Positions 3,232 through 21,884 of a DNA stretch of 32,000 nt are shown here, piece after piece. The stretch's first letter is position 1. Each line of letters starts with the position of its first letter. This stretch comes from Chlamydiota bacterium. Its GTDB lineage: Bacteria; Auribacterota; JACPWU01. The DNA lies in the NCBI GenBank assembly GCA_016196885.1, contig JACPWU010000053.1:504-32503 (forward strand), read 5' to 3'. The notes beneath the pieces were generated by a model. It searched no databases. It saw nothing but the letters and a program-made list of their open reading frames with translations, and was not told where the DNA came from. A program made the translations under genes and the position numbers.

Positions 3232-3309
3232 ATGTGCGCATGTGCCAATGTGTCAATGTGCCAATGATAAAACACCTTATTTCATTGGCACATAGGCACA
3301 TAGGCACAG
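3232..3309. repeat. Inverted tandem-octamer element (ptsH|ptsI junction)
   Basis: Left arm ATGTGCGC ATGTGCCA ATGTGTCA ATGTGCCA ATG; A/T-rich centre ataaaacaccttattt; right arm CATTGGCA CATAGGCA CATAGGCA CAG. The innermost 8 bp are perfectly complementary. Confidence 0.85.
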
Positions 3310-3312
3310 TCG

Positions 3313-3615
3313 TTACGCCTCCCCAAACTTCTTCAAAAAAACATCCTCTAACGCCTGAACAGCCAAAGCCGCATCATCTCCCTTGGCAATAATCTTAAGC
3401 CTTGTCCCCTTGGAAGCGGCCAGCATCATGACCCCCATGATGCTTTTTCCATTGACCTTCTCACCATTCTTCTCCAAAAAAATTTCCGAGTGAAAACCAT
3501 TGGCGACCTTGACCAGCATGGCCGCAGGACGCGCATGAAGCCCCAACTCATTTTGGACCAGAAGCTCCTTCACCACCCAACCCCTTTTTTCTTTTGAATC
3601 TATTTCTCGGCTCAT
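3313..3615 (-). CDS. ptsH: Phosphocarrier protein HPr
   Basis: GLHARPA (active-site His) and GKSIMGVMML (regulatory Ser) motifs. Lies between hprK and ptsI. Confidence 0.9.
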   Translation of the reverse strand: MSREIDSKEKRGWVVKELLVQNELGLHARPAAMLVKVANGFHSEIFLEKNGEKVNGKSIMGVMMLAASKGTRLKIIAKGDDAALAVQALEDVFLKKFGEA

Positions 3616-3616
3616 A

Positions 3617-4594
3617 CTAAGATTCTTTACGATGCACGATGTTCGACGTACGATGTACGGTTTTTTTTCTCATCTGTTCAATCAGCTCTTGGTTCAAATC
3701 CCGGCTTGCATGATATCCCATCTTTCTCAAGCGTTGATTGAGAGCCGCCACCTCTACCAACAATGCCAAATCCCTTCCCGGCCTCACCGGGACCAAGACA
3801 TGAGGCAAATCCACATCAAAAAGGCGATAGAATTGTTCGTCCATTCCGAGCCGGTCATATTCTTTTTCTGATTTCCAATCCTCTAGACTCACGACCAGTT
3901 CTACTTCTTTTTCTTGCATGACACAACTGGCACCAAACAAGGTCTGAATATTGATAATCCCAAGTCCTCTCACCTCCAAGTGATGCTTCAGGAGAGGATC
4001 GCCTGTCCCCAGGAGACGACCTCCCGCTGTGTACCGAACCCGCACCACATCGTCAGAGATCAAGCGATGTCCGCGCTCAATCAAACTTAAGGCGCATTCG
4101 CTTTTACCCACCCCGCTTTCACCCCGAATCAAAACTCCCACTCCAAATACTTCCACCAAATCAGCACTCACGGCTAAAACGGCTGCAAAAATATCTTCTA
4201 GGAAAAGGGTGGCTTTATTCACCAAAATCATGGTAACAAGGGGAGAGCGAAAAACAGGAATTTCTTTTTTTTCTGCTTCCTCCACCAGTTCGGTGGGAGG
4301 AAGCATTTGCCGAGAAACGATGCAGCAAGGAACGTCTTGGTCCAGAAGTTCAATAATCCTGGAGCGGCGCAGTTGGGGATCCATGTTCTTGAGATAAATG
4401 AGCTCCACTTTCCCCAACACCTGAACGCGACGACGAGCAAAGTAATCGAAATAACCCGCCAGCGCTAAGCCCGGGCGATTGACCTCTGCAACTTTGATTC
4501 GACGCTTCAACCCGCCAAAGCCAGCGACCAGACGCAACTGCAGCGAATCCCGCGTCTTTTGAAAGAATTCCTCAACGGTGAATCCTTTACTCAA
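3617..4594 (-). CDS. hprK: HPr kinase/phosphorylase
   Basis: GVLIRGESGVGKSECALSLIERGHRLISDDVV P-loop signature. TTG start overlaps the hpf stop (TTGA). The last ~17 codons are encoded by a tandem heptamer tract. Confidence 0.92.
   Translation of the reverse strand: MSKGFTVEEFFQKTRDSLQLRLVAGFGGLKRRIKVAEVNRPGLALAGYFDYFARRRVQVLGKVELIYLKNMDPQLRRSRIIELLDQDVPCCIVSRQMLPPTELVEEAEKKEIPVFRSPLVTMILVNKATLFLEDIFAAVLAVSADLVEVFGVGVLIRGESGVGKSECALSLIERGHRLISDDVVRVRYTAGGRLLGTGDPLLKHHLEVRGLGIINIQTLFGASCVMQEKEVELVVSLEDWKSEKEYDRLGMDEQFYRLFDVDLPHVLVPVRPGRDLALLVEVAALNQRLRKMGYHASRDLNQELIEQMRKKTVHRTSNIVHRKES
3628..3660. repeat. Tandem heptamer tract without an inverted partner, inside the hprK 3' end
   Basis: TACGATG CACGATG TTCGACG TACGATG TACGG. 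It encodes the hprK tail ..TVHRTSNIVHR.. Confidence 0.8.
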
Positions 4595-5139
4595 ATCTTC
4601 ACCTTCCCCACACGGGGCTCAATCAGGCCAAAATTCCCATCTTTCTTTTTATAGACTACATTCACCGACTCACTCTGAGCGTTCAAAAAAACCAAAAAGA
4701 CATCATCTGATAATTTGAGTTGGGCCATGGCCTCCTCAGAAGACATGGGTTTGGTCGCAAATTTCCGAGCTCTGACAAGGTGGGGTTCATTCTCCTCCTC
4801 ATCCATCTCGTCGCCATCACCAGAAGAAGTCTCAAATTCCTTCTCTTTGGTTCGATGAAATTGAAGCTTGTCCTTGTACTTTTTCAACTGGCGCTGAAGT
4901 TTGTCCATGACTTTGTCAATGGAAGCCATCACATCTTCCGTTTTCTCAGCCGCACGAATCCGCGTATGATGGACAAGAATCACCACCTCCACTTTATGCT
5001 GATAGCGCTCAGAATCAAAAATGGCATGCGCCCCCGTGACCTTCGGAATATTCTTTGAAATGCGCTCAAGCTTTTCAACCAAATAAGACTTGGCCATCTT
5101 GGACACTTCTTGATGCCGACTCGTAAATGTAATATCCAC
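4591..5139 (-). CDS. hpf: Ribosome hibernation promoting factor, long form
   Basis: N-terminal S30AE/HPF domain, an acidic linker, and the C-terminal dimerisation domain (RKFATKPMSSEEAMAQLKLSDDVFLVFLN). GTG start with GGAG 8 nt upstream. Confidence 0.9.
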   Translation of the reverse strand: MDITFTSRHQEVSKMAKSYLVEKLERISKNIPKVTGAHAIFDSERYQHKVEVVILVHHTRIRAAEKTEDVMASIDKVMDKLQRQLKKYKDKLQFHRTKEKEFETSSGDGDEMDEEENEPHLVRARKFATKPMSSEEAMAQLKLSDDVFLVFLNAQSESVNVVYKKKDGNFGLIEPRVGKVKI

Positions 5140-5160
5140 ACTTTTCTCCTTTGTAAAAAA

Positions 5161-5223
5161 AAGTTGTAAGTAAGAAAATAAACTCTTTTAAAACTTAGAA
5201 CTTAAAACTTACAACTTAGAACT
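5161..5223. repeat. Inverted tandem-heptamer element with conserved core (lptB|hpf junction)
   Basis: AAGTTGT AAGTAAG / aaaataaactcttttaaaa / CTTAGAA CTTAAAA CTTACAA CTTAGAA CT. Confidence 0.8.
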
Positions 5224-5283
5224 GCTTTTCTCAGTTGATCCTACTAGAAAAAGAAGCCACGCGTCAACTAGAACAGAACGGCA

Positions 5284-6006
5284 TTACATCGAAAATTTCT
5301 CGCCCAAATAAAGTTGACGCGCTTCAGGGTCATTGGCTAAAAATTCAGAAGTCCCCGATTTCAAAACCTTTCCTTCATAAATTAAATAAGTTCGATCCGT
5401 CACGGAAAGGGTTTCACGAACATTGTGATCCGTCAAAAGAATCCCCATGCCTTTTTTTCTTAACTTCTTCAAAATTTCCTGGACATCCAAAACAGCTATA
5501 GGATCCACTCCTGAGAACGGCTCATCTAACATGAGAAAAGAAGGTTTCGTAACCAAGGCCCGTGTGATTTCAAGCCGGCGCCTTTCACCCCCTGAAAGGG
5601 TATAGGCCTTACGAGTTGCCAGGGACGTCAGTTGAAGTTCATCCATCAATTCTGCCACCCTCTTTTTTCTCTCAGAGCGGGACATGGGCAGCATTTCTAA
5701 AATGGCGAGAATATTTTCCTCGACGGTTAGGTTACGAAAAATCGATGGCTCTTGAGCCAGGTATCCCATCCCCAGCCGCGAGCGCGTAGACACGGGAATT
5801 TTACTGATATCTCTTTGCCTAAAAAAAACCTTGCCAGCACTTGGAGAAATGAGCCCCACAATCATGTAGAAGGACGTGGTCTTCCCTGCCCCATTGGGCC
5901 CTAAAAGCCCCACAATCTCCCCCTCATTCACCGTGAGATTGACCTCATTCACCACTTTTTTACGGTGATAGGCCTTTACTAAATTTTCAGTTTGAAGAAG
6001 TTGCAT
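5284..6006 (-). CDS. lptB: LPS export ABC transporter ATP-binding protein
   Basis: Walker A GPNGAGKTT, signature LSGGERRR, Walker B LMLDEP. Sits directly downstream of lptA. Confidence 0.93.
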   Translation of the reverse strand: MQLLQTENLVKAYHRKKVVNEVNLTVNEGEIVGLLGPNGAGKTTSFYMIVGLISPSAGKVFFRQRDISKIPVSTRSRLGMGYLAQEPSIFRNLTVEENILAILEMLPMSRSERKKRVAELMDELQLTSLATRKAYTLSGGERRRLEITRALVTKPSFLMLDEPFSGVDPIAVLDVQEILKKLRKKGMGILLTDHNVRETLSVTDRTYLIYEGKVLKSGTSEFLANDPEARQLYLGEKFSM

Positions 6007-6030
6007 GCTTGTTTTCCCTCACGTGAAAAC

Positions 6031-6111
6031 GGTCGTGAGTCGTGAGGGATGAGTCGTGAGTAAAAAATAAATACCTTAAAACTCACGACCCACGACCGAC
6101 GACTCACGACT
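6031..6111. repeat. Inverted tandem-heptamer element with conserved core (lptA|lptB junction)
   Basis: G GTCGTGA GTCGTGA GGGATGA GTCGTGA G / taaaaaataaataccttaaaa / CTCACGA CCCACGA CCGACGA CTCACGA CT. Confidence 0.9.
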
Positions 6112-6117
6112 GTTTTC

Positions 6118-6606
6118 CTAAAGCCATCCCTGATCCTGAGCTGACTTCTGATCCGTAGAATATAAAATGAGCTTCGCACTCGGCTCTACCAGCATACGGC
6201 TGTCATCTCGATAAAAAGTGATTTTATCTCCCGTAATGACATCTTCTCCTTTTTTGACCATGGGGTGCCCCGTCAACACCACTTTGCCATCTTTCTCTGT
6301 GTAAATCGCTTCTTCAGATTTAGCGCTTTTCTCTTCTTTGCGAAATCGAACATTCCCCTTTGCCAAGACTTTCTGAATGGTTTTTGTCCCGCTTTCAAAA
6401 TACACCGTCATTTCATTCGCTGTCATTTTCATCCGCGGATCATCTACCACCACATCCTTGTGAAAAATCGCCATGTTCTTTTCATAATCCATGTTCAACT
6501 CACCCTGACAGGTAATGGTGGTCTGAGGTGGGGTCTTCTCAGGAAAAGCCTGAACACAAATGGCCAAGAGAAACATCGCTATGAAAATACTTTTTTTTCT
6601 GTGCAT
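6118..6606 (-). CDS. lptA: LPS transport periplasmic protein LptA (OstA-like)
   Basis: Signal peptide followed by an OstA-like beta-jellyroll pattern (KGNVRF..A..A.Y......VLTGHP....GEDVITGDKITFY). Position between lptC and lptB. Confidence 0.8.
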   Translation of the reverse strand: MHRKKSIFIAMFLLAICVQAFPEKTPPQTTITCQGELNMDYEKNMAIFHKDVVVDDPRMKMTANEMTVYFESGTKTIQKVLAKGNVRFRKEEKSAKSEEAIYTEKDGKVVLTGHPMVKKGEDVITGDKITFYRDDSRMLVEPSAKLILYSTDQKSAQDQGWL

Positions 6607-6617
6607 CTTTTTAATTC

Positions 6618-7118
6618 CTACATTTCCTTAAAAGCCTTCATTTCACTGGAATCCACCACCATCTTCACATTTTTATGAATGACCGCCGTCCTCTTCAGGG
6701 TCTCCCAATACATCCCTACCCCTGTGAGTTTGAAATCGCCTCGAGTAATTTCGACAGGGGCCTCGGTCCAAACATCTCGGGTATTTTTATCCACATACCC
6801 GACAGAAGACTCAATGAAATAATCCGGTTCGTTTCTTCCATAGACAACCGCTCGAACAGGTCTTATCTCAATCTTATCATCGGATAAAAACTGGGCCTCA
6901 TCTCCCTCCACCTTCCAGCGCTTTTCATTTTCAAAACCCGGCGAGACAAACCGAAAGCCCTGTGTGATTTGATCGCCGGTTGAACCTGTTTCGACGCCAT
7001 TCACTAAAATCGGAAGAAAAAAAGAAGCACACAGCATACAGCGTACAGCGTACAAAATTAAAAGGCAAAAAGTTTTTCCGTCCGCTGTGCGCTGTACGCT
7101 GAACGCTCTCTTAAACAT
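6618..7118 (-). CDS. lptC: LptC-like LPS export component with N-terminal membrane anchor
   Basis: Size, position (kdsC-lptC-lptA-lptB) and a single N-terminal TM helix. ATG 7118 has GAGGTG upstream, whereas the track start at 7127 is TTG. Codons ~5-31 coincide with an inverted heptamer element, so the start is uncertain; the alternative is ATG 7037. Confidence 0.6.
   Translation of the reverse strand: MFKRAFSVQRTADGKTFCLLILYAVRCMLCASFFLPILVNGVETGSTGDQITQGFRFVSPGFENEKRWKVEGDEAQFLSDDKIEIRPVRAVVYGRNEPDYFIESSVGYVDKNTRDVWTEAPVEITRGDFKLTGVGMYWETLKRTAVIHKNVKMVVDSSEMKAFKEM
7028..7108. repeat. Inverted tandem-heptamer element lying inside the predicted lptC N-terminus
   Basis: ACAGCAT ACAGCGT ACAGCGT AC / aaaattaaaaggcaaaaagtttttcc / G TC CGCTGTG CGCTGTA CGCTGAA CGCTC. 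Confidence 0.85.
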
Positions 7119-7638
7119 ATTGCGCAATCACCTCTTCCCAAACCCCCTGAGCCTTCAGAATTTTCTCAACCACCTCTCGCACGGCTCCCCGTCCTCCACA
7201 AGACTGGGTCACATAAGAGGCAACCCTTTTCACCTCAGAAACGGCATTCTGGACTGCAACAGAGAAACCAACCCTTTTCAAAATTGAAATGTCAATCAAA
7301 TCATCCCCGACATAACATACTTCCTCAGGTTGAAGCCTAAAATTTCTCAAGAGATCTTCAAACGCCTCACCCTTCTCTAAACGATTTTGATAAAGGGCAT
7401 CCACCCCCAACTCTTTTGCACGTAAGAGAAGCGCCTTGGATTCTCGTGCACTGATAAAGACCGTCTTTAATCCTGCCCTCTTCGCAAGCACAATGCCAAG
7501 CCCGTCCAAGGCGTGAAAAGTCTTAAACTCTTTTCCATCGCCATCCAGGTAAATCACACCATCGGTGAGAACACCATCCACGTCGAGGGCGAGGGCTTTG
7601 ATATTCCGCAAAAGCACTGAAAGAGTTTGTTTTTTCAT
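7111..7638 (-). CDS. kdsC: 3-deoxy-D-manno-octulosonate 8-phosphate phosphatase (HAD-IIIA, YrbI family)
   Basis: LALDVDGVLTDG ... GDDLIDISIL motifs; neighbours kdsD. Confidence 0.9.
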   Translation of the reverse strand: MKKQTLSVLLRNIKALALDVDGVLTDGVIYLDGDGKEFKTFHALDGLGIVLAKRAGLKTVFISARESKALLLRAKELGVDALYQNRLEKGEAFEDLLRNFRLQPEEVCYVGDDLIDISILKRVGFSVAVQNAVSEVKRVASYVTQSCGGRGAVREVVEKILKAQGVWEEVIAQYV

Positions 7639-7641
7639 AGA

Positions 7642-7743
7642 AATTCAGAATTCAGAAGTCAGAATTCAGAAGAAAAGCGAACACGCTAAGTTTTTCGTTT
7701 TTATTCTGAATTCTGTATTCTGTATTCTGACTTCTGTATTCTG
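7642..7743. repeat. Inverted tandem-heptamer element (kdsD|kdsC junction)
   Basis: AATTCAG AATTCAG AAGTCAG AATTCAG AAG / aaaagcgaacacgctaagtttttcgttttt / ATTCTGA ATTCTGT ATTCTGT ATTCTGA CTTCTGT ATTCTG. Confidence 0.9.
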
Positions 7744-7745
7744 TT

Positions 7746-8729
7746 TTAAAAAATCCCATTCCTAATCAAATCCTGCACATCCAACATCCCCACAGGATGA
7801 TCCCTTCCATCCACCACCGGCAATTCATCCACGCGCAAATCCTTCATGACGCGGAGCGCCTCAATCGCCATTTTCCCCACCTCGATGGTCTTCGGATGCC
7901 GGGTCATCAACTCCGAAATCAATTTCTGAAGCACCTGCGGATCTTCTTCTAGATGCCGGCGTAAATCCCCATCCGTAAAAATTCCGACCAAGCGGCCAGA
8001 ATCATCCACCACATTGGCCGCTCCTCCGTGTGCCGTCGTAATACGAATGAGCACATCTCTAACGCATGTTTTCATGTGAACGATGGGGTTCATCTCCCCC
8101 GTTCTCATGATGTCTTCAACCCGCAAGGTCAATTTTTTTCCCAGACTGCCCCCCGGATGATAAAGCGCATAATCCTCTGGTTTAATTCCCTTTCGATCTA
8201 AAAGGGCCATGGCCAAGGCGTCTCCCACCACCAGGCTCACCGTCGTACTGGCCGTAGGAGCAAGACCCAAAGGACAGGCCTCTTTTTGAATCGTGATATC
8301 GAGAACAATGTCCGCATTTTTTGCCAAAGTGGATTGAAGATTTCCTGTCATGCCAATGACCTTGGCCTCCATGTGCTTCAAAAAGGGCAATAAATTTTTA
8401 ATCTCTTCCGTCTCCCCACTGTTAGAAATAATCAGGATGACATCTTTTTCTAAGACTGTTCCCAAATCTCCGTGGCTTGCCTCCGCTGGATGAATGAATT
8501 GAGACGGCGTTCCCGTGCTGTTAAAAGTCGCGGAAATTTTTCTCGCAATAATACCGGGTTTACCCATCCCCGTCACAATCACCTTTCCTTCACAGTGATA
8601 AAGGAGATCCACAGCCCTTTCGAACTCATCTCCCAACCGATCCATCAAAGCTAGAATGGCCTCTGCTTCAGTCTTAATGACCATGCGGGCAATGCGCAAT
8701 GACTCTGATAATTTTTCGGCTGCTCTCAT
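7746..8729 (-). CDS. kdsD: Arabinose-5-phosphate isomerase (SIS + tandem CBS)
   Basis: KpsF/GutQ pattern: GKVIVTGMGKPG, ISNSGETEE, C-terminal CBS pair. Confidence 0.92.
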   Translation of the reverse strand: MRAAEKLSESLRIARMVIKTEAEAILALMDRLGDEFERAVDLLYHCEGKVIVTGMGKPGIIARKISATFNSTGTPSQFIHPAEASHGDLGTVLEKDVILIISNSGETEEIKNLLPFLKHMEAKVIGMTGNLQSTLAKNADIVLDITIQKEACPLGLAPTASTTVSLVVGDALAMALLDRKGIKPEDYALYHPGGSLGKKLTLRVEDIMRTGEMNPIVHMKTCVRDVLIRITTAHGGAANVVDDSGRLVGIFTDGDLRRHLEEDPQVLQKLISELMTRHPKTIEVGKMAIEALRVMKDLRVDELPVVDGRDHPVGMLDVQDLIRNGIF

Positions 8730-8764
8730 GTTTTCTCAATCTATCCTTCTTGGCAACATCTTTT

Positions 8765-8793
8765 AAATCCAAAAATCAAAATGCAAATATCAA
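8765..8793. repeat. Orphan heptamer arm fragment (AAAATCA type)
   Basis: AAATCCA AAAATCA AAATGCA AATATCA. Same unit type as the left arm at 8921-8956, and separated from it by the 100-nt GC-rich element. Confidence 0.7.
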
Positions 8794-8798
8794 TTCCA

Positions 8799-8902
8799 AT
8801 GATCCTTCGAGATCATCATGTGCGATGAAAGTTCTCCCCATCATGCTTTTTTTGTAGTCGCCCGATTCATCGGGCAGCCCCATAAATGGGGCGACTACAA
8901 AA
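8799..8902 (+). repeat. ~100-nt GC-rich structured repeat element, copy A
   Basis: ATGATCCTTCGAGATCAT hairpin, then GATGAAAGTTCTCCCCATCATG, a T-run, GTAGTCGCCCGATTCATCGGGCAGCCCCATAAATGGGGCGACTAC and an A-run. Near-identical to 20302-20404. Confidence 0.9.
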
Positions 8903-8920
8903 TGAGCCTGACTTTCATAG

Positions 8921-9020
8921 CAAATGACAAACCAAAATCCAAAATGATTACCAAAGATAAAGACGTAGATACACTTTGATTTTTAATATGTCATTTTGAT
9001 TTTTGATATTTGATTTTTGA
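8921..9020. repeat. Inverted tandem-heptamer element (kdsA|kdsD junction)
   Basis: Left arm caaatgacaaaccaaaatccaaaatgattaccaaag; centre ataaagacgtagatacac; right arm TTGATTT TTAATAT GTCATTT TGATTTT TGATATT TGATTTT TGA. Confidence 0.75.
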
Positions 9021-9022
9021 AT

Positions 9023-9868
9023 TTATTTAATTCCAAACTTCCCCACCACTCCATCTAATTCCAAGACCTGTTCCAAAAGGTCTGGAAGATCCGCCAAGCG
9101 AACCATATTCGGGCCATCGCTTAAGGCATGATCGGGATCATCATGCACCTCCATGAAAAGACCGTCACATCCCGTGGCCACCGCTGCCCTCGCCAGAGGA
9201 AGAACGAAAGAACGCTCTCCCCCAGAACGATCCCCTTCGCCCCCTGGCAATTGAACACTGTGCGTCGCATCAAAAATCACAGGAAAACCAAAAGAGCGCA
9301 TCACGACCAAACTTCTCATGTCACTCACCAAATTATGATACCCGAAAGAACATCCCCGTTCCGTTAGTAAAATATTCTCTGTACCTACACTTTGAGCTTT
9401 TTCAACCACATTGTACATATCCCACGGGGATAAAAACTGACCCTTTTTGATATTGATGGCCTTTGCCTTTTTGGCCACCTCGACAACCAGATCTGTTTGC
9501 CGGGACAAAAAGGCTGGAATCTGAAGAACATCGGCGACCTCAGCCACAGGAGAAACTTCCTCTATCGAATGGACATCGGTCAAAATGGAGACGCCAAACT
9601 CCTTTTTCACCTTTGTCAAAATCTCCAAACCTTTTTTCAGACCCGGCCCTCGAAAGGAACGAACGGAACTGCGATTGGCCTTATCATAAGAAGATTTAAA
9701 AATCCAAGGTAAAGATTTATTCTTAAAAACACGATGCAAAGCCTCCGCCATTTTCACACAGTGCTCTTCACTCTCAATGACGCAAGGCCCTGCAATAAAA
9801 ACCAAAGGGTGCCCTGAACCGATAGAAATCTTGCCTATTTTTACTTCTTTGACTGTTGGAGAAGTCAT
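9023..9868 (-). CDS. kdsA: 3-deoxy-8-phosphooctulonate synthase
   Basis: FKSSYDKANRSS, IFDATHSVQLPGG, GLFMEVHDDP motifs. Confidence 0.95.
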   Translation of the reverse strand: MTSPTVKEVKIGKISIGSGHPLVFIAGPCVIESEEHCVKMAEALHRVFKNKSLPWIFKSSYDKANRSSVRSFRGPGLKKGLEILTKVKKEFGVSILTDVHSIEEVSPVAEVADVLQIPAFLSRQTDLVVEVAKKAKAINIKKGQFLSPWDMYNVVEKAQSVGTENILLTERGCSFGYHNLVSDMRSLVVMRSFGFPVIFDATHSVQLPGGEGDRSGGERSFVLPLARAAVATGCDGLFMEVHDDPDHALSDGPNMVRLADLPDLLEQVLELDGVVGKFGIK

Positions 9869-9896
9869 GAGATACCCCTATCCTACGATCAAAAAC

Positions 9897-10013
9897 CAAT
9901 CATCACTAATGACAAATTCCCAATTTCAAATGACAAATAAATGTTCAATGACTCAATCTTCAATTGGACATTGGATCATTGGAAATTAATTTGTTATTTG
10001 TCATTGGTCATTA
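9897..10013. repeat. Inverted tandem-heptamer element (pyrG|kdsA junction)
   Basis: The left arm has AATGACA-type units; caaatgacaaataa at 9927-9940 pairs with ttatttgtcattg at 9994-10006. Right arm CATTGGA CATTGGA TCATTGG ... TTTGTCA TTGGTCA TTAC. The right arm overlaps the pyrG stop region. Confidence 0.75.
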
Positions 10014-14121: not shown

Positions 14122-14891
14122 TTGTTTTTAATGATTTCCACCTTTACCAACGTTGCAGTCACACTTCCAAAAGGGACTTTGGTTTTCACCAAGAGGGGAA
14201 GACGTCTGCGATCGTCCGAAACCCATGCCCAAACGCGGCCTCGCTTCTCAAACATTCCCTTAAATTGAGCCAGAGGTTCCACATAAAAAGCATTAAAAGT
14301 TCCGAGTCTGTGAACTTCCCAATTTTTTCGATAATCCTCTACTTGTACTTCCAACTTCCAATTTTTCTCATCGGCATTCACATCCATAAAACAACTCTCC
14401 CCCACTTTCATGGGGAAGGTTCGAAAAAAATAAATCGCCGAAAGGGTGTCTTGTACTTTGGGAGGGATCTCCATTTCCTTCACAGATCCATTTTTAAACG
14501 AATGATATCGAGCCGTATGTTTCTCCTGATCGTAAACCATCTCCTCATCCGAGTGGTAACCTCCCTCAGACTGCTTCTTACAAAAACGCCAGGAATAAAG
14601 GCCCTCCACATCAAAGTAGGTCTCTGCATAATCACGAACCTTATAAAAGGTCGAAAGAAACGAATTGGACCCGGCCTCCATCACGATGTGATAGACGCGA
14701 TGCCCTTCATATTCTTGAATCCCGTGCACATGAAGCGTGGCCCAACCGACTGGAATCACTCCCCAACGTAAAAGATAAGTCAACTTCTCACCCACCCTTG
14801 GACCGTGGGTCCCTGAAACTTCTTGAGCGTGAAGAGAAAAAGAAAATAAAAAGAAAATAAAAATTTTAGAAATCAGAAATCGAATCTCCAT
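14109..14891 (-). CDS. DUF3108 domain-containing secreted protein
   Basis: Signal peptide (MEIRFLISKIFIFFLFSFSLHA) and the DUF3108-like pattern GEKLTYLLRWGVIPVGWATL..FYKVRDYAETYFD. Start set at ATG 14891; the track start is TTG. Confidence 0.72.
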   Translation of the reverse strand: MEIRFLISKIFIFFLFSFSLHAQEVSGTHGPRVGEKLTYLLRWGVIPVGWATLHVHGIQEYEGHRVYHIVMEAGSNSFLSTFYKVRDYAETYFDVEGLYSWRFCKKQSEGGYHSDEEMVYDQEKHTARYHSFKNGSVKEMEIPPKVQDTLSAIYFFRTFPMKVGESCFMDVNADEKNWKLEVQVEDYRKNWEVHRLGTFNAFYVEPLAQFKGMFEKRGRVWAWVSDDRRRLPLLVKTKVPFGSVTATLVKVEIIKNKGEE

Positions 14892-14955
14892 AGATTTTTT
14901 AATGTATAACAACGTTCATGAAATTATGAAAGAAAAAAAATAGCATGCAATTTTT

Positions 14956-14980
14956 CTTTGAACCCTTAAACCTTTGAACC
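14956..14980 (+). repeat. Tandem octamer tract CTTTGAAC CCTTAAAC CTTTGAAC at the cyclase 3' end
   Basis: Direct reading. It encodes the cyclase C-terminal ..KGSKV and its stop. Confidence 0.8.
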
Positions 14981-16882
14981 TTTTTTATCGATAACTTCAT
15001 ACACAGCCACAGACCGCTCCATCCCCTTCACCTTGGTCTCCCCCAAAAATCGGGTCTCCCAATGATTTTCCACCCGTGCGTTCGTGGCCTGACTGATGAC
15101 GATCGGAACATCAAAAGACCTTGTGAGCCCTTCCAGTCGAGCCGCCAAATTTACCTCATCTCCCAAAACTGTATAATTCATGACATGAGAAGAGCCCACA
15201 TTTCCAACCACCATCCAACCCGTGTTGACTCCCACTCCGATAGAAAATGGCTCGTGACCGCGTGCCTTCCAATTTTGCTGAAGCTCCTTTAATTTCTTTT
15301 GCATTTGATAAGCCGCATTGACTGCGCACACCGCATGATTCTGAAACAGGGGAAGGGGCGCCCCAAAAATAGCCATGAGACCATCTCCCAAATACTTGTC
15401 CAAGGTTCCGCCACACTCCAAAATAATCTGGGTCATGGCGTCAAAATATTCGTTCAAAATCGAGATCACCTCTTCTGGCGTTTTTCGTTCACAATAAGAA
15501 GAAAAATTTTGAATGTCCGAAAAAAGAACGGTCAATTCCTCGCGTTTTCCTCCTAACGCCAGCCCTTGAGGATCTTTTAAGACTCTCTCCATCACCGCCC
15601 GTGAAACATAATGCTGAAAAGCTTTTTTAACATATCTTTTTTCTTTCTCTTCCGTCCAAAAACGATGGGTCGTTGAAATGAGATACGATCCCAAAATGGC
15701 CAATGAAGAAATCACCCATGGCAATTGAACATTCCACCTGCCGAACAACACAAAATCGCTCACCGTAAAAACCATCAGGATCGCCAGAGACCCTAAAGCA
15801 GCCCAAAGAGGTTCAGCCCCACAACTCACAAGACTCGTCACAAGACAAAGGCCAAAGAGCATCAACCCATAAGCCCAAAGCGGAACAATTTTAATAAAAT
15901 CCCTTTGCAAAATATTTTGGAGGGCATTGAAATGAACCATCACCAAAGGCGTATTGGGAGAAAGGGGAGTGGGCCCCACATCGGCCACGCCTGTCGCAGT
16001 GAACCCCACGACCACAATAGCATGGGGAAAGACCTTTTTTCTTTTTAAGACCTGATCAAAACGATAAGAGCGAATCTCATCCAAACCCGATCTAAAATTT
16101 ACCAGATAATCCCCTTCGCGATCGATCGGAATGAGAAGCGGGCCCTCTTTCAGCTTTAATTTCAAGAAGGGTCCTGGAAGAAGCTCCACATCCTGCCCCG
16201 AAAGATTGTAATATTGCATGATGAGCTTCAAGGTAAAACTCGGGAGAATCTGATCGCCATATTTGACCAGAAGGGGAATACGTCGAATAGAACCATCTAC
16301 ATCGCGGGGAACATTGATAAATCCCAAGGCACCATTCTGAGCAAGCTCTGGATATGGCATTTCTAATTCTTGAGCTGCTCGCAAGGAAAGATTTTCAGAT
16401 GAAATGCGGGTTAATCCTGAAAGCTCATTTTTCTGGACAATCTTAATTTGCCAATCCTCCAAAGGTTTTCCCCAAGTCTTCTCCATTCTAAAATAAGACG
16501 CATAGGTCAAGGTATCAAAGAGGCGGCTCATTTGCGCAAAATCATGATCGTCAGAAGGATGAGCCGTATCCGCCCCCTCAAAAAGGATGTCAAAACCTAA
16601 GGCAAGCGGAGGATTTTGAGAAAGGACTTGAAGAAGCGCTGCATGATAAGACCGTGACCAAGGCCACCGGCCCAGAACCTTAATCGCCCCATCATCAATC
16701 CCCACCAACATGAGTCTTGAATCAGCTCGGTCTAAACCTCGAAAGAAAAATTTGACATCCAGCCCCTTGAGTTCCATCAACCGAATGAAACGGCCTTGGG
16801 AAAGAAAAGAAAAGACGGTGAATGAGAGAACAGCAATCGCAAAACCTCTCTTCATCCACTTCCTTGAAAAAATGTTTGGCAT
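14966..16882 (-). CDS. CHASE2-sensor adenylate/guanylate cyclase (class III)
   Basis: N-terminal TM, a CHASE2-like periplasmic region (VGIDDGAIKVLGRWPWSRSYHA), TM bundle, and a C-terminal cyclase (VLFSDIQNFSS..YLGDGLMAIFGAP..GDEVNLAARLE). Start at ATG 16882. Confidence 0.88.
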   Translation of the reverse strand: MPNIFSRKWMKRGFAIAVLSFTVFSFLSQGRFIRLMELKGLDVKFFFRGLDRADSRLMLVGIDDGAIKVLGRWPWSRSYHAALLQVLSQNPPLALGFDILFEGADTAHPSDDHDFAQMSRLFDTLTYASYFRMEKTWGKPLEDWQIKIVQKNELSGLTRISSENLSLRAAQELEMPYPELAQNGALGFINVPRDVDGSIRRIPLLVKYGDQILPSFTLKLIMQYYNLSGQDVELLPGPFLKLKLKEGPLLIPIDREGDYLVNFRSGLDEIRSYRFDQVLKRKKVFPHAIVVVGFTATGVADVGPTPLSPNTPLVMVHFNALQNILQRDFIKIVPLWAYGLMLFGLCLVTSLVSCGAEPLWAALGSLAILMVFTVSDFVLFGRWNVQLPWVISSLAILGSYLISTTHRFWTEEKEKRYVKKAFQHYVSRAVMERVLKDPQGLALGGKREELTVLFSDIQNFSSYCERKTPEEVISILNEYFDAMTQIILECGGTLDKYLGDGLMAIFGAPLPLFQNHAVCAVNAAYQMQKKLKELQQNWKARGHEPFSIGVGVNTGWMVVGNVGSSHVMNYTVLGDEVNLAARLEGLTRSFDVPIVISQATNARVENHWETRFLGETKVKGMERSVAVYEVIDKKGSKV

Positions 16883-16947
16883 TGCCAAAGTGATCTCCAA
16901 ATGGTTACAATAGGCGTGTTCGTAAAGTCTGCAATACCCCAAGAAAT

Positions 16948-17024: not shown

Positions 17025-18347
17025 ATGAAAAAAATAATCCTCGCTTCTCTCTTTTTACTCATGGTTCTTTCACTTCTTCAAGCTTCTCCCATCCCCCAAC
17101 CCTTGATCCAATCCTTACAAGGAGAAGTCCAAATTCTTAAAACCCAGGGGAGCGAACCGGCCAAAACAGGAATGGCCCTTTCAACATCGGATATTCTTTC
17201 CACGGGACCTCATTCCTTTTGCGTGATCAAAATGGACGAAGAGAATTCCCTTCGTGTGAAGCAAAACTCCAAAATTAAAATCAAAAAAATATGGGAAGAG
17301 GTTCAAAAATCAGACGGCCGTGTGGTTCAGGAATACCGAGTGAATGTGACCCAGGGCGAGCTCACTGCCCAATTAGGAAAACTCCCCAAAGACAGCGAAT
17401 TCAAAGTCTCAAGCCCTGTCGCCGTCGCAGGAGCAAAAGGAACGGTTTACACAACAAGAGTAGAAGGAGAAAGCGGGAAGACACGGGTAAGCGTTCTAGA
17501 CCATGAAGTCTTAGTCGAAAGTTTGGACAGTCCTAACAAAACAGTCACTGTGCAAAAATTTAGATGGGTGGACACGGCCCCCTGGGACGAAACAACACTC
17601 AACGCAACAGGACGCGCTCTCCTCTCCGAGGCCATTTTAGGAAAAAATTTTGCGAAACAGGCGGAACAAAATGCACAAATTCAAGCTATCGGAACAGGCC
17701 CTTCCCCAGAGGAAGCCAAATTTAAGGCTACCTACAACCTATCCAGAATCGCCCTTCAACTCCATGTAGAACCAGAAAAAACCGTCGGCGCCTATATTTC
17801 TCAAAGCACGGAACAAACTCAAAAATTTTATCAGGCGATTGCAAAAGCACAAGTCACCGAGCCCACTCAAAAAGAAGACGGGTCCTTAGAGGCCAAGGCC
17901 CAAATCAATGTTAAAGATTTGGCAGAAGCTTTGAAACATCCCCTTTCAGGGATCACACAAAGCATCATTCCCGTCACCCTTTCCGAATACTCATCAAAAT
18001 TTGGAGCGCTGGCCCGCGTGACCACACAGCGAGCGGCCCAAGTAGAAGGATATCGAAACCTCGCCGAAATCATTTATGGCGTTGTGATCGACTCAAACAC
18101 CACCGTGCAAGACTTGGCCGTAAAAAATGACACGGTTCGCACAGTTGTTCAAGGCGTGGTCAAGGGAGCCAAGGTCGTGAACACTCAATACTTCTCTGAC
18201 GGCTCCGTCATTGTCTCTCTGGAAATTCAGGGAGGACTCATTCCTCAACAGTTAGGGACAACCACAGGCAATGTATTTGGACAAAATTATCTCTCGAGTC
18301 CCAGAATCGTCCAATACGATGAAATCGTAGATTATTTGAACCTTTGA
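17025..18347 (+). CDS. Secreted FecR-domain protein fused to two FlgP/LPP20-like domains
   Basis: Signal peptide, then a FecR-like N-terminus (GEVQILKTQGSEPAKTGMALSTSDILSTGPHSFCVIKMDEENSLRVKQNSKI). The C-terminus carries RAAQVEGYRNLAEIIYGVVIDSNTTVQDL..GAKVVNTQYFSDGSVIVSLEI, the same domain as the proteins at 21893-23786. A weaker copy lies at IQAIGTGPSPEEAKFKATYNL. Confidence 0.7.
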   Translation: MKKIILASLFLLMVLSLLQASPIPQPLIQSLQGEVQILKTQGSEPAKTGMALSTSDILSTGPHSFCVIKMDEENSLRVKQNSKIKIKKIWEEVQKSDGRVVQEYRVNVTQGELTAQLGKLPKDSEFKVSSPVAVAGAKGTVYTTRVEGESGKTRVSVLDHEVLVESLDSPNKTVTVQKFRWVDTAPWDETTLNATGRALLSEAILGKNFAKQAEQNAQIQAIGTGPSPEEAKFKATYNLSRIALQLHVEPEKTVGAYISQSTEQTQKFYQAIAKAQVTEPTQKEDGSLEAKAQINVKDLAEALKHPLSGITQSIIPVTLSEYSSKFGALARVTTQRAAQVEGYRNLAEIIYGVVIDSNTTVQDLAVKNDTVRTVVQGVVKGAKVVNTQYFSDGSVIVSLEIQGGLIPQQLGTTTGNVFGQNYLSSPRIVQYDEIVDYLNL

Positions 18348-19098: not shown

Positions 19099-19109
19099 TC
19101 AGGAGGCTT

Positions 19110-19171
19110 GACCAAAATGCACCCAATTGCATTTTGGTCTTGACTAAAATGCAATGGGGTGCATTTTGGTC
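19110..19171. repeat. Two adjacent 30-nt hairpins built from four copies of the 12-mer GACCAAAATGCA
   Basis: GACCAAAATGCA cccaat TGCATTTTGGTC tt GACTAAAATGCA atgggg TGCATTTTGGTC. The two loops are nearly complementary to each other. Confidence 0.9.
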
Positions 19172-19253
19172 ACTATGGATAGAATCCAAAAAAAGCTTAA
19201 AACACTACATCACTTCGGCTCTGAGTGATCCTCAAAAAGAAAGATCTTTCGTC

Positions 19254-19315: not shown

Positions 19316-20266
19316 TCAACCCTCAAACTTCAAAACATCGCCGCGTTGAAAACCACCCCCCCCTACTGTGGTTGCAATTGAAAATTTATCCTGAACTTGA
19401 GAAACTTGAATCAGGCCAATTTTGGTGAGTTCAGAACCCAAATCCATTCCGGTGTCAGGATCCACCAAGGTTTCACCTGGACGATAGACTGTAAGCGTAT
19501 CCCCCATCTGAATACCCGCCGAAGCTCCGGCATTGACAAACACTTTACCCTCCGGCTTCACATCCACAATGCGACCCAACCAAGGAACACTTTGCATACG
19601 ACCCACAATAAAAAAAACAGACTTATCAATCGCCTGCTGACAAGCCTGGCCCAAAGGCGTCTTATCAAAACCCGCTCCACCAAAGGCAAAGTCGCTGTCC
19701 GTGTACGAAAAGGAAAGACCTCCCGCTTCAGCAATTCCTTCACAATGTTGAGAGTCCAAAACCTGACCGGTGGTTGTATCATAGATACGAATATTGACAC
19801 CCACCTTGGCCCGCGATTGATTGGCCCCAATGCGAAAACCATGAACAGCAAATCCACCGCCCTCGCCCCCGCCAGAGGCTTCAAATTCAGTCACAGCGCC
19901 ACTGATCATGATTTGACTCTTAAGAATTTTTCCAATCTTGGCCGCCTCTCCACCCGCCGTGCGACCACTGACTCCAAAATCTTGTTCAGCAATCACCTTT
20001 TCAATTTCGGGACGCTCCACCACAATAAAACGCCCGCTTCGAATGAGTGCAGTGGTCAACATCTCGGCCATGCCATTGCCCAAATCCCATTTGGCCCACT
20101 GACCTGCCTTATTTTCAAAAGTCCCGACCGCAATGGTTTTCTTAGGGCCACTGGGAGCCGGCAAGGCCGCCACAGGAGCCGCCTTCACGGGATACGCAAA
20201 GGCCCCGCCCACTGAACACAAAAGTGAAGCAATCGCTAAAACACTCAAAACCTTCATCTTTTTCAT
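19316..20266 (-). CDS. CsgG/HfaB-family outer-membrane protein with a ~90-aa C-terminal extension
   Basis: Signal peptide MKKMKVLSVLAIASLLCSVGGAFA. CsgG pattern TIAVGTFENKAG..WDLGNGMAEMLTTALIRSGRFIVVERPEIEKVIAEQDF...ISGAVTEFE. Start at ATG 20266 with AGGAG upstream. The track's 35-codon N-terminal extension translates the 100-nt repeat element. Confidence 0.85.
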   Translation of the reverse strand: MKKMKVLSVLAIASLLCSVGGAFAYPVKAAPVAALPAPSGPKKTIAVGTFENKAGQWAKWDLGNGMAEMLTTALIRSGRFIVVERPEIEKVIAEQDFGVSGRTAGGEAAKIGKILKSQIMISGAVTEFEASGGGEGGGFAVHGFRIGANQSRAKVGVNIRIYDTTTGQVLDSQHCEGIAEAGGLSFSYTDSDFAFGGAGFDKTPLGQACQQAIDKSVFFIVGRMQSVPWLGRIVDVKPEGKVFVNAGASAGIQMGDTLTVYRPGETLVDPDTGMDLGSELTKIGLIQVSQVQDKFSIATTVGGGGFQRGDVLKFEG

Positions 20267-20301
20267 GACCTTTAGATTTCTCCTTTCACAAATTAATTTC
20301 G

Positions 20302-20404
20302 ATGATCTTTCGAGATCATCGTATGCAATGAAAGTTCTCCCCATCATGTTTTTTGTAGTCGCCCGATTCATCGGGCAGCCCCATAAATGGGGCGACTACA
20401 AAAA
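20302..20404 (+). repeat. ~100-nt GC-rich structured repeat element, copy B
   Basis: Same orientation as copy A. Over the ~100-nt core I count 4 substitutions plus a 2-nt length difference in the T-run. Lies 36 nt upstream of the CsgG-like start codon. Confidence 0.9.
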
Positions 20405-20417
20405 GAACCTATTCTGG

Positions 20418-21560
20418 CTAAAGAGGTGCTTGTCTTTCCCCAACCCACTTCACATCAATACGGTTTTGAGATTTTGCCGTGACCGCCAAGGCAATGCCGG
20501 GAAGATTCTCTAAGTGAACATCAAAATCTTTCCAGATCGCCCCATCCACAGTCAAATCTAAAATCAAAATATTATTCACAAAACTTCTTTCATTCACACT
20601 CTGAATTCCTCGAATTTCTTCCAAGGTCTTGACAAGCATTTGCTTCGCAGTCGCATTCACACCACTGGCTACCACTTGAATGTTCACCACGTTATAGGCC
20701 TCGCTACGCATTTTCTCAACCATTTCACTCATCAATTTATCTGCCAATTGCCCAGCCCCGAACCGAAGGGCATCCTTAGCAGTTGGAATGCGACCGCCGC
20801 CCCTGGCTTCTCCTTCAACATCATCAGACACCATCACTTCAGCTGTATCTGTTTTAATCACCCGAGCTGAAATCTGGGAGCGGTAAGCAAAAACAGAAAC
20901 GCCGTAGGGTCTAGAATGATCAATCAAATCTGCCGTGGCCTGCCCCACCACCACCATCTCTGCTCCAGATTGACGTCCCAGGGCAGCTGCTTTTTGAGGG
21001 TCGGCATAACTCAAGGCCGCATCTCTTTCCTTAATCATCTGTATCTGATTTTTGTCCACCAGAGGAAAATCCTTGGCAAGAAAAGCCCTCTCCATTTCAG
21101 TTTGAGTCACGGCACCTGCCTGCTCCAATCCATCAATCAATTCAGCAAAAATGAACATCACCCTTGGATTTTCCCGACGCTTCATCGTAATCTTAAGCGC
21201 CTTCAAATTCTTTTCCAAAAGGCCCAAGGCAACCACCGCCCGAACACGAATCACATAAAGCCCATCTTGACCTTGATTATCATTAATCACTTCATAGCTT
21301 GTGACATAACCCTTCACCTGAGAATAGACTTGATCGTCCAAAAGCTGAAAATTGCTGACCATGGTTTCAGAATCAATAATCGAACCCACGCCCTGCTCAA
21401 TGGCATTCCTGAGCGCCCGATTCAAAGCCTCATCATGGGCCTGCAAACTATTTCCTACAGATTTCCCCTCAGCTTCAATCGCTGTCTCAGCAACTTGAGC
21501 AGAAAGTTGAAAACCTGAAAGCATCCCTAATAATGTAAAAAACATGATCCATCTTTTCAT
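20418..21560 (-). CDS. FlgT-like periplasmic protein (LPP20/FlgT_N-like N-domain plus an alpha/beta middle domain and a C-domain)
   Basis: Signal peptide, then AEGKSVGNSLQAHDEALNRALRNAIEQGVGSIIDSETMVSNFQLLDDQVYSQVKGYV..LYVIRVRAVV, which resembles FlgT N-terminal/LPP20-type domains. ~380 aa, similar in size to Vibrio FlgT. Assignment by eye. Confidence 0.5.
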   Translation of the reverse strand: MKRWIMFFTLLGMLSGFQLSAQVAETAIEAEGKSVGNSLQAHDEALNRALRNAIEQGVGSIIDSETMVSNFQLLDDQVYSQVKGYVTSYEVINDNQGQDGLYVIRVRAVVALGLLEKNLKALKITMKRRENPRVMFIFAELIDGLEQAGAVTQTEMERAFLAKDFPLVDKNQIQMIKERDAALSYADPQKAAALGRQSGAEMVVVGQATADLIDHSRPYGVSVFAYRSQISARVIKTDTAEVMVSDDVEGEARGGGRIPTAKDALRFGAGQLADKLMSEMVEKMRSEAYNVVNIQVVASGVNATAKQMLVKTLEEIRGIQSVNERSFVNNILILDLTVDGAIWKDFDVHLENLPGIALAVTAKSQNRIDVKWVGERQAPL

Positions 21561-21583
21561 CTAAGTTTTTCCTTTCTTAACCT

Positions 21584-21665
21584 GTCGTGAGTCGTCGGTC
21601 GTGAGTCGTGAGTAAAAACAAATACTTTTTAAACTCACGACTCACCCCTCACGACTCAAGACTAC
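21584..21665. repeat. Inverted tandem-heptamer element with conserved core (mini-lipoprotein|FlgT-like junction)
   Basis: GTCGTGA GTCGTCG GTCGTGA GTCGTGA G / taaaaacaaatactttttaaa / CTCACGA CTCACCC CTCACGA CTCAAGA CTAC. Confidence 0.9.
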
Positions 21666-21799
21666 TCGACCACTTCCGTCTGTTCTACCACCGTTTCATT
21701 CATAACATCTGTATGATGCTCATGAGGTGCTTCACAACCCCAAAGATTCGTAAGAATGACAGCCACATAAGCAACACCCATCCATTTGAAAAGCTTCAT
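21662..21799 (-). CDS. 45-aa putative lipoprotein
   Basis: Below the track cutoff: MKLFKWMGVAYVAVILTNLWGCEAPHEHHTDVMNETVVEQTEVVE. Has a lipobox-like LWGC and GGAG ~9 nt upstream. Bracketed by two repeat elements. Confidence 0.45.
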   Translation of the reverse strand: MKLFKWMGVAYVAVILTNLWGCEAPHEHHTDVMNETVVEQTEVVE

Positions 21800-21820
21800 G
21801 GTCTCTTCTCCTTGTTTTAA

Positions 21821-21884
21821 CAGTCGTCAGTCGTGAATGTTAAAGGTATTGTTTATTTTTTTACTCATCCTCACCCCTCACCAC
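21821..21884. repeat. Heptamer element with the conserved core in inverted orientation and non-matching arms
   Basis: CA GTCGTCA GTCGTGA / atgttaaaggtattgtttattttttta / CTCATCC TCACCCC TCACCAC. The core is the reverse complement of the taaaaa..ttaaaa core seen elsewhere. Confidence 0.8.

Follow-up and report, generated by a model that had tools for sequence, protein, structure and literature searches.

Why should one bacterial operon carry, at junction after junction, paired arrays of short tandem repeats whose units face each other as reverse complements and change from one junction to the next? The question is raised by a stretch of 32,000 nucleotides (nt) from contig JACPWU010000053.1 of a Chlamydiota bacterium, referred to here as the window, in which an original prediction had noticed hairpins with arms of tandem 7- or 8-nt units. 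These elements are confirmed as real, non-random and not assembly artefacts. In the explanation that we prefer, and to which we assign a probability of about one half, they would be generated at the level of DNA as self-reinforcing, slippage-remodelled repeats that are co-transcribed between cistrons. They would resemble REPINs, the hairpins formed by repetitive extragenic palindromic (REP) sequences, and MITEs, miniature transposable elements with inverted repeats.

Inverted arrays fold into long hairpins

Arrays were called with Tandem Repeats Finder (TRF), and two arrays of equal period lying no more than 80 nt apart, with consensus units reverse-complementary at no more than one mismatch, were counted as a clean pair. 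The window contains 22 arrays and seven clean inverted pairs, against a mean of 0.55 arrays and not a single pair in 100 dinucleotide-preserving shuffles. The clean pairs are located at 3232–3308, 6032–6111, 7026–7107, 7642–7744, 12368–12443, 14032–14121 and 21584–21663; where a label is needed, elements are named by their start (3232, 5161, 6031 for 6025–6117, 7028 for 7026–7107, 14033 for 14032–14121, and 21584). Every locus named in the original prediction has period-7 or period-8 arrays, and the architecture it described is real, but its count of 11 or more junctions comes down to ten paired loci, seven of them strong, and two unpaired arrays.

Each of the seven clean pairs forms a single long hairpin when folded as RNA (−30 to −51 kcal/mol, z-scores of −5.2 to −8.8) and a long hairpin when folded as DNA (z-scores of −4.6 to −8.9), the two strands behaving alike, with stems of 25–40 bp enclosing A/T-rich loops of 12–30 nt. 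The arms co-vary within a locus, as had been proposed. RNA folding is weak at three degenerate inverted-heptamer loci (5161–5223, z-score of −0.8; 9897–10013, −1.6; 8921–9020, −3.1), and the arrays at 3628–3659 and 14956–14983 are single arms without a partner. Arms in the window comprise a median of 4.3 units (interquartile range (IQR) 4.1–4.4); they are built of tandem heptamers, internal palindromes not being a feature of them, and at least seven unrelated, mostly non-G-rich units stand side by side within 20 kb.

Contigs of Logan short-read assemblies (SRR12113387/416/417) match window positions 8995–14065 at 100% identity, spanning two whole elements, and break over this interval solely within arrays; the 5161 element was found intact on a further Logan contig. 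Four Logan contigs of the same organism (L001–L003 and L084) end exactly within heptamer arrays, and the elements thus fragment k-mer assemblies and will be under-represented in metagenome-assembled genomes (MAGs). A search with Rfam covariance models gave no match at the gathering score and, below it, solely far sub-threshold matches to microRNA precursors, that is, to generic long hairpins. The elements are neither a new RNA family nor terminators.

The elements occupy stop-to-start gaps

All genes across 1413–16942 are on the minus strand, in the order CHASE2 cyclase, DUF3108, hldE-kinase, gmhB, kdsB, pyrG, kdsA and kdsD, followed by kdsC, lptC, lptA, lptB, hpf, hprK, ptsH and ptsI. Read in the sense of the mRNA, the 5′ arm of an element begins at the upstream stop codon (in six of the seven window elements, between −13 and +6 nt from it), and 3–25 nt separate the end of the 3′ arm from the next start codon. 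The junctions are co-directional, and the same genes are tightly packed in the closest species representative (L004), so that the predicted placement between genes that are probably co-transcribed holds, except that the element at 7026–7107 lies within the probable lptC coding sequence. Relative to L004, arrays add C-terminal extensions to the open reading frames (ORFs) of HprK, the cyclase, PyrG and the DUF3108 protein. A scan for sigma-70-like promoters gave 33 sites, where 22.5 ± 4.5 were expected, which is not convincing enrichment; the idea that the loops hold promoters was dropped, as the scan gave no consistent site in them.

The window proteins are deposited at NCBI under MAGs labelled Chlamydiae or Chlamydiota, from a contig of 32.5 kb. 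By LptB similarity the organism falls in a small clade at 78–85% identity, and the next tier, at 71–72%, includes MAGs of Candidatus Auribacterota, the nearest named relatives. The host is not a cyanobacterium, as had been argued from the gene content.

Elements were gained in a formerly compact operon

In L004 the gene order is identical, with amino-acid identities of 54–84%, and the intergenic spacers measure −14, 2, −4, 2, 2, 51, 12, −25 and 14 nt; no period-7 or period-8 array was found in this operon. The operon is equally compact in L178 and L180/L181. Among the other relatives, occupancy of the junctions varies (L173, L175–L181): L173, a groundwater MAG whose LptB is 84% identical, is as heavily occupied as the window, and L175, L177 and L179 have one to three elements apiece. 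Junctions that carry arms in some genomes are empty in other relatives. Because L004 has the same operon with short spacers and without elements, the elements are shown to be lineage-specific gains at the junctions of a formerly compact operon.

Where a junction is occupied in two genomes, the arms may differ altogether. At ptsH–ptsI the unit is TGTGCCTA in the window and CCGGTTKG in L177; at DUF3108–hldE it is GGGTGAG in the window and GGCTCGA in L173; and at lptA–lptB the AGTCGTG of the window has its place taken by GATTTCG in L173 and by CAGCGTN in L179.

Relatives also carry hairpins of other construction at their junctions. Between kdsB and pyrG of L173 is a long non-periodic palindrome (3615–3745; folding free energy of −79 kcal/mol), and in L176 a repeat of about 110 nt (CTGAAAAAGSCCMATCTGCT...GCGGCGTA...TACGCCTCCGCAGTC) is common to two junctions (2071–2269 and 8281–8444). 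Such non-periodic palindromes indicate that several kinds of hairpin repeat have invaded the operon.

Arms and loops recur as separate modules

Two families were recognised: family A has a common loop on differing arms, and family B has common arms around differing loops. The family-A core, GTGAGT-AAAAA...AAAACTCAC, is present in window elements 6031, 21584 and 14033 (three matches, with 0 expected). The loop of 6031, TAAGGTRTTTATTTTTTAC, is identical at 19 of 20 positions with that of the ptsH–ptsI element of L177, even though the arms of the latter are 8-mers unrelated to those of 6031, and it is also recognisable in window elements 5161 and 3232 and in the hpf–hprK element of L175. There are three to four family-A copies in the window, and in all four of the clear window copies (4/4) the loop has the same orientation relative to the downstream gene.

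Family-B arms, about 50 nt long (AAATTCAAAAATCAAATATCAAAAATCAAAATGACAT... and its complement), occur five times within 20 kb of L173 and, with the kdsA–kdsD element of the window, make six copies over two genomes, whose loops are unalignable. Arms of the CAGCGTA type are likewise found in element 7028 and at a different junction, lptA–lptB, in L179, with differing loops. Between 6031 and 21584 the arms match best in reverse orientation (57/62 positions, against 50/61) and the loops in forward orientation (14/19, against 10/19), which suggests that in these paralogs the loop may have been flipped between its inverted arms.

The locus-specificity first proposed for the units is only partly right: 6031 and 21584 are paralogs, a loop is common to 14033, 5161 and 3232, the locus at 8921–9020 belongs to the family with five copies in L173, and the arms of 7028 recur in L179. 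As arms and loops recur separately over junctions and genomes, the elements are shown, on comparison of their sequences, to have spread or been exchanged in the manner of REPIN and MITE repeats.

Two further observations concern the family-A loop. An AAGG in it was considered as a Shine–Dalgarno (SD) mimic or CsrA-like site and rejected, the GG being kept in just three of seven loops. The ptsI codons for GKVFIFD (CAAGGTCTTTATTTTTGAC; window 3144–3162, L177 4813–4831, L004 17436–17454) are identical at 16 of 19 positions with the loop TAAGGTGTTTATTTTTTAC, and in L177 they are located just 125 nt downstream of the loop-bearing element; this similarity could be a coincidence or the source of the family-A loop.

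The same architecture in other bacteria

The detector was also run over 1.76 Mb of unrelated DNA, composed of 80 KdsA loci (1.25 Mb) and 88 metagenome loci (0.51 Mb). It returned 20 inverted pairs, 14 of period 7 and six of period 8; throughout the scan there was no inverted pair of periods 4–6 or 9–12, and there were no direct pairs. Two period-7 pairs from metagenomes (L115 and L120) have telomere-like units, are probably eukaryotic and were excluded, leaving 18, whose carriers include Acidobacteriota, Verrucomicrobiota and Thermodesulfobacteriota. Arms at these loci comprise a median of 4.4 units (IQR 3.8–4.6). Of the 23 elements that could be classified, 19 are at co-directional junctions, abutting the stop codon, three are at divergent junctions and one is at a convergent junction, and most of the 23 occupy the stop-to-start gap. 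Across phyla, the stems start a median of about 3 nt past the stop codon and end 5–25 nt before the start codon.

Orthologous elements were compared in two pairs of Acidobacteriota loci. In the first, from two Blastocatellia genomes, the arms are conserved like the flanking genes and the loop has diverged. In the second, one arm has 8.3 units in one genome and 5 in the other, a difference of about three whole units that is uncompensated in the partner arm.

Some heptamer units appear to recur across phyla (L030 17155–17274, L065 4843–4975, L082 5319–5472 and L173 300–329). The unit ATTCTGA of window 7642–7744 matches the class 3 consensus of Geobacter, MTYCTGA; GATTTTG is found in Blastocatellia and in family B; and AAAGTTC/GAACTTT of Acidobacteriota is present in L173 as CTTTGAA, with a related 8-mer, GGTTCAAA, in the window.

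How the arms may be made and kept

Mismatches were scored in 19 stems at co-directional junctions. Watson–Crick pairs fill 457 positions, and the 59 mismatches divide into 7 sense-strand G–U, 13 sense-strand A–C (equivalent to G–U on the antisense strand) and 39 of transversion type. The split between G–U and A–C on the sense strand is without bias (p = 0.26), and folding energies are the same for sense and antisense strands. Since a hairpin selected as RNA is expected to show mostly sense-strand G–U, and there is no excess of it, generation at the DNA level is favoured over selection of the RNA. Of the proposed generation or selection at the level of secondary structure, the first therefore fits better, as generation of DNA, and the second finds no support.

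The consensus unit of one arm departs by 1 nt from that of the other in five of the seven window elements, and does so in nearly every unit. A variant that has spread along one arm and has not been copied to the other points to slippage or unequal exchange within arms. A picture of slippage also fits the 14- and 21-nt higher-order repeats that TRF reports within arrays, the unequal arms of 5161 and L082, and arrays for which the end of an ORF was the seed, as in hprK.

In the preferred explanation, tandem 7- and 8-mers would promote replication slippage, which would make the periodic arms and continually remodel them, and the inverted arms would promote template switching or recombination, by which the arms would stay similar and the loop may flip. 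Complementarity would be maintained chiefly at the DNA level, RNA-specific selection not being the main force, and whole elements or modules would reach new junctions by a REP-like route without target-site duplication. Owing to their position inside operons, the elements would be co-transcribed, giving intercistronic stem-loops of 25–40 bp that start at the upstream stop codon and end just short of the next ribosome-binding site. With ancestral spacers of a few nucleotides, the only tolerated sites would lie between these two signals, and an element would be tolerated because its folded stem holds stop and start close. Secondary effects on mRNA processing, stability or coupling are possible, as for the stem-loops of REP sequences and of SRPS (selective processing and stabilization of RNA); the elements would not act as terminators.

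Several points weigh against this explanation. The best flanking direct repeats at the elements are 0–5 nt long, within the range at random positions, so that no target-site duplication is seen; there is no transposase in the window, and no mobilising enzyme was identified. A scan of public metagenomes for the family-A core (GTGAGTAAAAA-N8-20-AAACTCAC) gave 88 matches, about the number expected by chance, among which heptamer arms are confined to L100 and L171 and, in part, L102; with a count so close to chance, a high-copy family A is not demonstrated. The loop inversion is read from about ten discriminating arm positions and from loop identities of 14/19 against 10/19, the G–U test has 20 informative mismatches in all, and the element-rich genomes of the lineage were sampled over about 52 kb. 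A period of 7–8 nt and about four units per arm are without explanation in the model. Finally, the family-A loop is kept across genomes whose neutral sites are presumably saturated, which hints at a sequence-specific function; such conservation is not predicted by a purely selfish or neutral model.

Alternative explanations

The alternative that survives best, and that we regard as a tentative possibility, is that the elements are RNA modules under selection, with a role in mRNA stability or processing (through RNase III, 3′ protection or an SRPS-like mechanism), in stop–start coupling or in the display of a U-rich loop. Its strongest argument is the same loop, TAAGGTRTTTATTTTTTAC, conserved between genomes on unrelated arms. 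The 8-mer period retained in L177 as well as in the window at ptsH–ptsI, the constant orientation of the family-A loop, the regular stop and start placement across phyla, the two Blastocatellia genomes in which the arms are conserved like flanking coding DNA, and the precedent of SRPS stem-loops (PMC4423207) all point the same way. Yet sense-strand G–U is not enriched, most mismatches are transversions occurring once per unit, and the antisense strand folds equally well. The operon, moreover, works free of elements in L004, L178 and L180, and close relatives differ in which junctions are occupied and in the type of arm. In family B and in the CAGCGTA type it is the loop that varies, and a coding region (probably lptC) has taken up one element.

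Somewhat more doubtful is a broader reading in which inverted pairs of about four 7- or 8-nt units wedged between stop and start form one modular class across phyla (this lineage, Acidobacteriota, Verrucomicrobiota, Thermodesulfobacteriota, Xanthomonas and Geobacter). The arms would then be either a module by which some machinery propagates or recognises the elements, for example an enzyme of repair or transposase type that would rewrite the arms and leave the loops as they are, or a device for keeping translation coupled across an insertion, and the conserved U-rich family-A loop would have a sequence-specific function.

We consider it unlikely that the arms are DNA-binding sites, that is, iterated heptamers recognised by a nucleoid-associated protein or global regulator, or by a recombinase or transposase, as proposed in Geobacter metallireducens. 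It is the arms, not the loops, that are conserved in family B and in the CAGCGTA type; the distance between arms varies, as it does in Geobacter; a near-constant number of about four units would suit a protein oligomer (see also PMC4692102); and some units recur across phyla (ATTCTGA as MTYCTGA; GATTTTG and AAAGTTC in Acidobacteriota and this lineage). However, at least seven unrelated units in 20 kb would call for many specificities or a sequence-blind protein, a spacing of 7 nt turns successive sites to different faces of the helix, and no candidate protein was identified.

Function as Rho-independent terminators or attenuators lacking canonical U-tracts is very improbable. The stems are strong, and T-runs follow two of the elements, 5161 (T8) and 7028 (TCTTTTTTT), so that the T-tracts said to be missing are absent from eight of ten elements; the run after 7028 is, however, coding sequence, and the region has no excess of terminator-like sites (29, with 23.8 expected). 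Stems of 25–40 bp with loops of 12–30 nt are unlike those of intrinsic terminators, the elements stand 3–25 nt before essential cistrons and leave no room for a promoter, and just 1 of the 23 classified elements is at a convergent junction. The view that these are not ordinary terminators is upheld by their T-tract counts and position and by the lack of terminator enrichment.

An artefact of assembly or amplification can practically be discarded: short-read contigs do break within the arrays, but assemblies made independently from three runs agree at 100% identity over intact elements, the proteins have been deposited at NCBI in identical form under two accessions each, and the architecture is found in dozens of unrelated genomes from different studies and in finished genomes of Xanthomonas and Geobacter (PMC4692102, PMC2700814).

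Relation to described repeats

The elements had been thought to match no described family, which does not hold. In Xanthomonas, there are about 180 GGGAATC arrays per genome, 70–75 as convergent inverted pairs (Rehm et al. 2015, PMC4692102), with four units preferred and, as a strong tendency, a position next to or overlapping the upstream stop codon (PMC4692102). Common to both systems are tandem heptamers of about four units, one array per strand, arranged convergently and capable of forming a stem-loop or cruciform, with a bias towards the stop codon, and a pair type that is kept between species while copy number shifts. The Xanthomonas unit is, in contrast, a single G-rich one throughout the genome, studied as a former of G-quadruplexes, whereas window units are diverse, and the window alone has loop and arm reassortment and 8-mers. 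No tandem dimer of GGGAATC is present in the window.

Geobacter metallireducens has paired sites of 3–5 tandem 7–9-mers, one on either strand and at a distance that varies (Aklujkar et al. 2009, PMC2700814), which were guessed to be binding sites of integration host factor (IHF) or HU type and placed in classes 1–3 (PMC2700814). As in the window, 3–5 tandem repeats of 7–9 nt per strand are paired and intergenic, including within operons (proBA); they are lineage-specific, being absent from G. sulfurreducens, and the window unit ATTCTGA fits the class 3 consensus, MTYCTGA. They differ in having three or four genome-wide consensus classes, interpreted as IHF/HU-type sites without a hairpin or mobility model.

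Single heptamer arrays are located upstream of start codons in Beggiatoaceae (TAACTGA; PMC4679880) and Nostoc (bioRxiv 10.1101/2022.06.06.494920), with one inverted heptamer partner in the Beggiatoa genome. According to Mrazek et al. 2007, as quoted in PMC4679880, heptanucleotides outnumber every other class of long simple repeat in the genomes of many bacteria. Going by such second-hand accounts, the short tandemly repeated repetitive (STRR) sequences and long simple-sequence repeats (LSSRs) of 5–11 nt resemble the window elements as intergenic tandem heptamers, often directly upstream of starts, that are phylogenetically sporadic and for which slippage is the proposed origin. STRR sequences, TAACTGA of Beggiatoaceae and TTTTGAA of Nostoc are, however, mostly single direct arrays of few fixed units, in which an inverted partner is rare. 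None of the STRR1–3, GGGAATC and TAACTGA units occurs in tandem in the window. The STRR1–3 units, CCCCAGT, TTGGTCA and CAACAGT, reportedly come from heterocystous cyanobacteria and are said to go back to Mazel et al. in 1990. To our knowledge, heptanucleotide repeats have no accepted function or origin.

REPINs and the bacterial interspersed mosaic elements (BIMEs) built from REP sequences are likewise short, non-coding inverted repeats that form long hairpins, are dispersed, also at operon junctions, and are co-transcribed. Conserved arms around a variable spacer (family B), nesting, and the absence of a target-site duplication, as for REP sequences and their REP-associated tyrosine transposase (RAYT), add to the likeness. 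REP arms differ in bearing a palindrome of their own and in not being tandem-periodic, whereas window arms are without internal palindromes; and REP mobilisation needs a RAYT transposase, whereas the 32-kb window has no transposase. MITEs share terminal inverted repeats and multiple dispersed copies with families A and B, but they keep a constant internal sequence and usually have target-site duplications, of which there are none beyond chance here. The resemblance to SRPS is one of possible working, not of membership: both place strong stem-loops between cistrons of one transcript, but those of SRPS are short and specific to particular genes, and experiments have linked them to processing sites, whereas the window elements are known from sequence.

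On the best reading of these comparisons, the elements belong to the heptanucleotide tandem-repeat kind (LSSR- or STRR-like), as non-coding intergenic repeats that form hairpins. The window is a real and dense instance, in a new lineage, of a known but poorly understood repeat class; new here are the many unrelated units in one operon, the reassortment of modules and the regularities across phyla.

The individual elements

All elements described in this section are on the minus strand. The ptsH–ptsI element (3232–3308) is paired and composed of 8-mers with the sense unit TGTGCCTA; its loop carries the family-A core AAGGTGTTTTAT, and its 3′ arm stops 10 nt ahead of the ptsI ATG (3221). Within the 3′ end of hprK, a single-arm array of 4.6 CGTACAT heptamers (3628–3659) codes for a C-terminal extension (VHRTSNIVHRKES) that L004 lacks. 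The degenerate family-A copy between lptB and hpf (5161–5223), with unequal arms of about 1.5 and 5 units and then a run of T8, fills the site where L004 has a 376-residue ORF. The family-A element between lptA and lptB (6025–6117) has (AGTCGTG)4 arms, the loop TTTAAGGTATTTATTTTTTAC and an RNA folding free energy of −51 kcal/mol; its paralog (21584–21663) is upstream of a 380-residue gene.

The 376-residue ORF of L004 (14165–15295, between lptB and hpf) lies at what we take to be the usual location of rpoN, for which it is a candidate. The corresponding part of the window (5140–5283) is merely 144 nt long and holds the degenerate element; despite this gap at the usual rpoN site, the window has a sigma-54 activator gene at 24328–25860. 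In L173, a gene for an extracytoplasmic function (ECF) sigma factor follows lptB on the opposite strand.

The paired (CAGCGTA)4 element (7026–7107) lies within the probable lptC ORF and is not intergenic. The probable lptC start is an ATG (7118) that shares bases with the kdsC stop codon and has a strong SD sequence (AGAGGTGAT) upstream; only with this start does LptC (6618–7118) have a hydrophobic N-terminal anchor comparable to that in L004. Gene callers may choose another start position. Judged by this alignment of features, the loop and 3′ arm probably encode the N-terminal membrane anchor of LptC, and the element also its cytoplasmic tail.

Between kdsD and kdsC, the paired (CAGAATA / TTCTGAA) element (7642–7744) extends from 3 nt past the stop codon to 3 nt before the ATG, with one variant unit mirrored across both arms. 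The family-B element between kdsA and kdsD, with arms AAATTCAAAAATCAAATATCAAAAATCAAAATGACAT..., has a true span of 8765–9024, its 3′ arm being interrupted by a nested 127-nt dispersed repeat (8784–8909). Between pyrG and kdsA are degenerate composite inverted arrays of AATGACA and CCAATGN units (9897–10013), the first of which contributes the terminal codons of pyrG together with its stop codon. The paired (AATGAAA / TTTTCAC) element between gmhB and kdsB (12366–12450) begins directly past the gmhB stop codon. The arms of the family-A element between DUF3108 and hldE (14032–14121), GGGTGAG / ACTCACC, are periodically mismatched, once in each unit, and the final codons of the DUF3108 gene are overwritten by the 5′ arm. 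A single-arm array of 3.5 copies of the 8-mer GGTTCAAA (14956–14983) gives the CHASE2 cyclase gene both its C-terminal extension and its stop codon; the cyclase junction in L173 carries the reverse complement of this unit.

Other features of the window

The 127-nt dispersed repeat is present twice (8784–8909 and 20287–20410, 85–97% identical) and contains a REPIN-like double palindrome, GTAGTCGCCCGATTCATCGGGC / GCCCCATAAATGGGGCGACTAC; its second copy overlaps the called 5′ end of a CsgG-like ORF. At the convergent junction of the DUF3307 and CsgG-like genes are two tandem 32-nt hairpin units (19107–19172; CTTGACCAAAATGCACCCAATTGCATTTTGGT), which may act as a terminator in both directions or represent a further small repeat family. 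Paralogous genes for LPP20-domain lipoproteins cluster beside a CsgG/FlgT_C-like gene (21893–23221, 17025–18347, 23271–23786 and 19316–20371), and one gene of this cluster has three internal repeats of about 456 nt. Small ORFs at 27247–28439 resemble by eye putative toxin–antitoxin pairs (RelE/ParE-like and HigB/HigA-like); adjoining them is an ORF of 1,184 residues (28440–31994) with no Pfam match.

Significance

Hairpin repeats of this kind are real, widespread and patchily described in bacteria. In the lineage of the window they amount to a dense natural experiment, one conserved operon being found with and without elements in related genomes, with arms and loops reassorting between copies. 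For the annotation of MAGs they matter directly, as they break short-read assemblies, add C-terminal extensions to proteins and can supply a membrane anchor, as is probable for lptC. The regularities that hold across phyla, namely a period of 7 or 8 nt only, about four units per arm, arms that are inverted and never direct, and abutment to the upstream stop codon, make a vague repeat class testable with respect to the origin of its period, to complementarity through DNA template switching as opposed to RNA selection, and to a role in translational coupling or mRNA stability.

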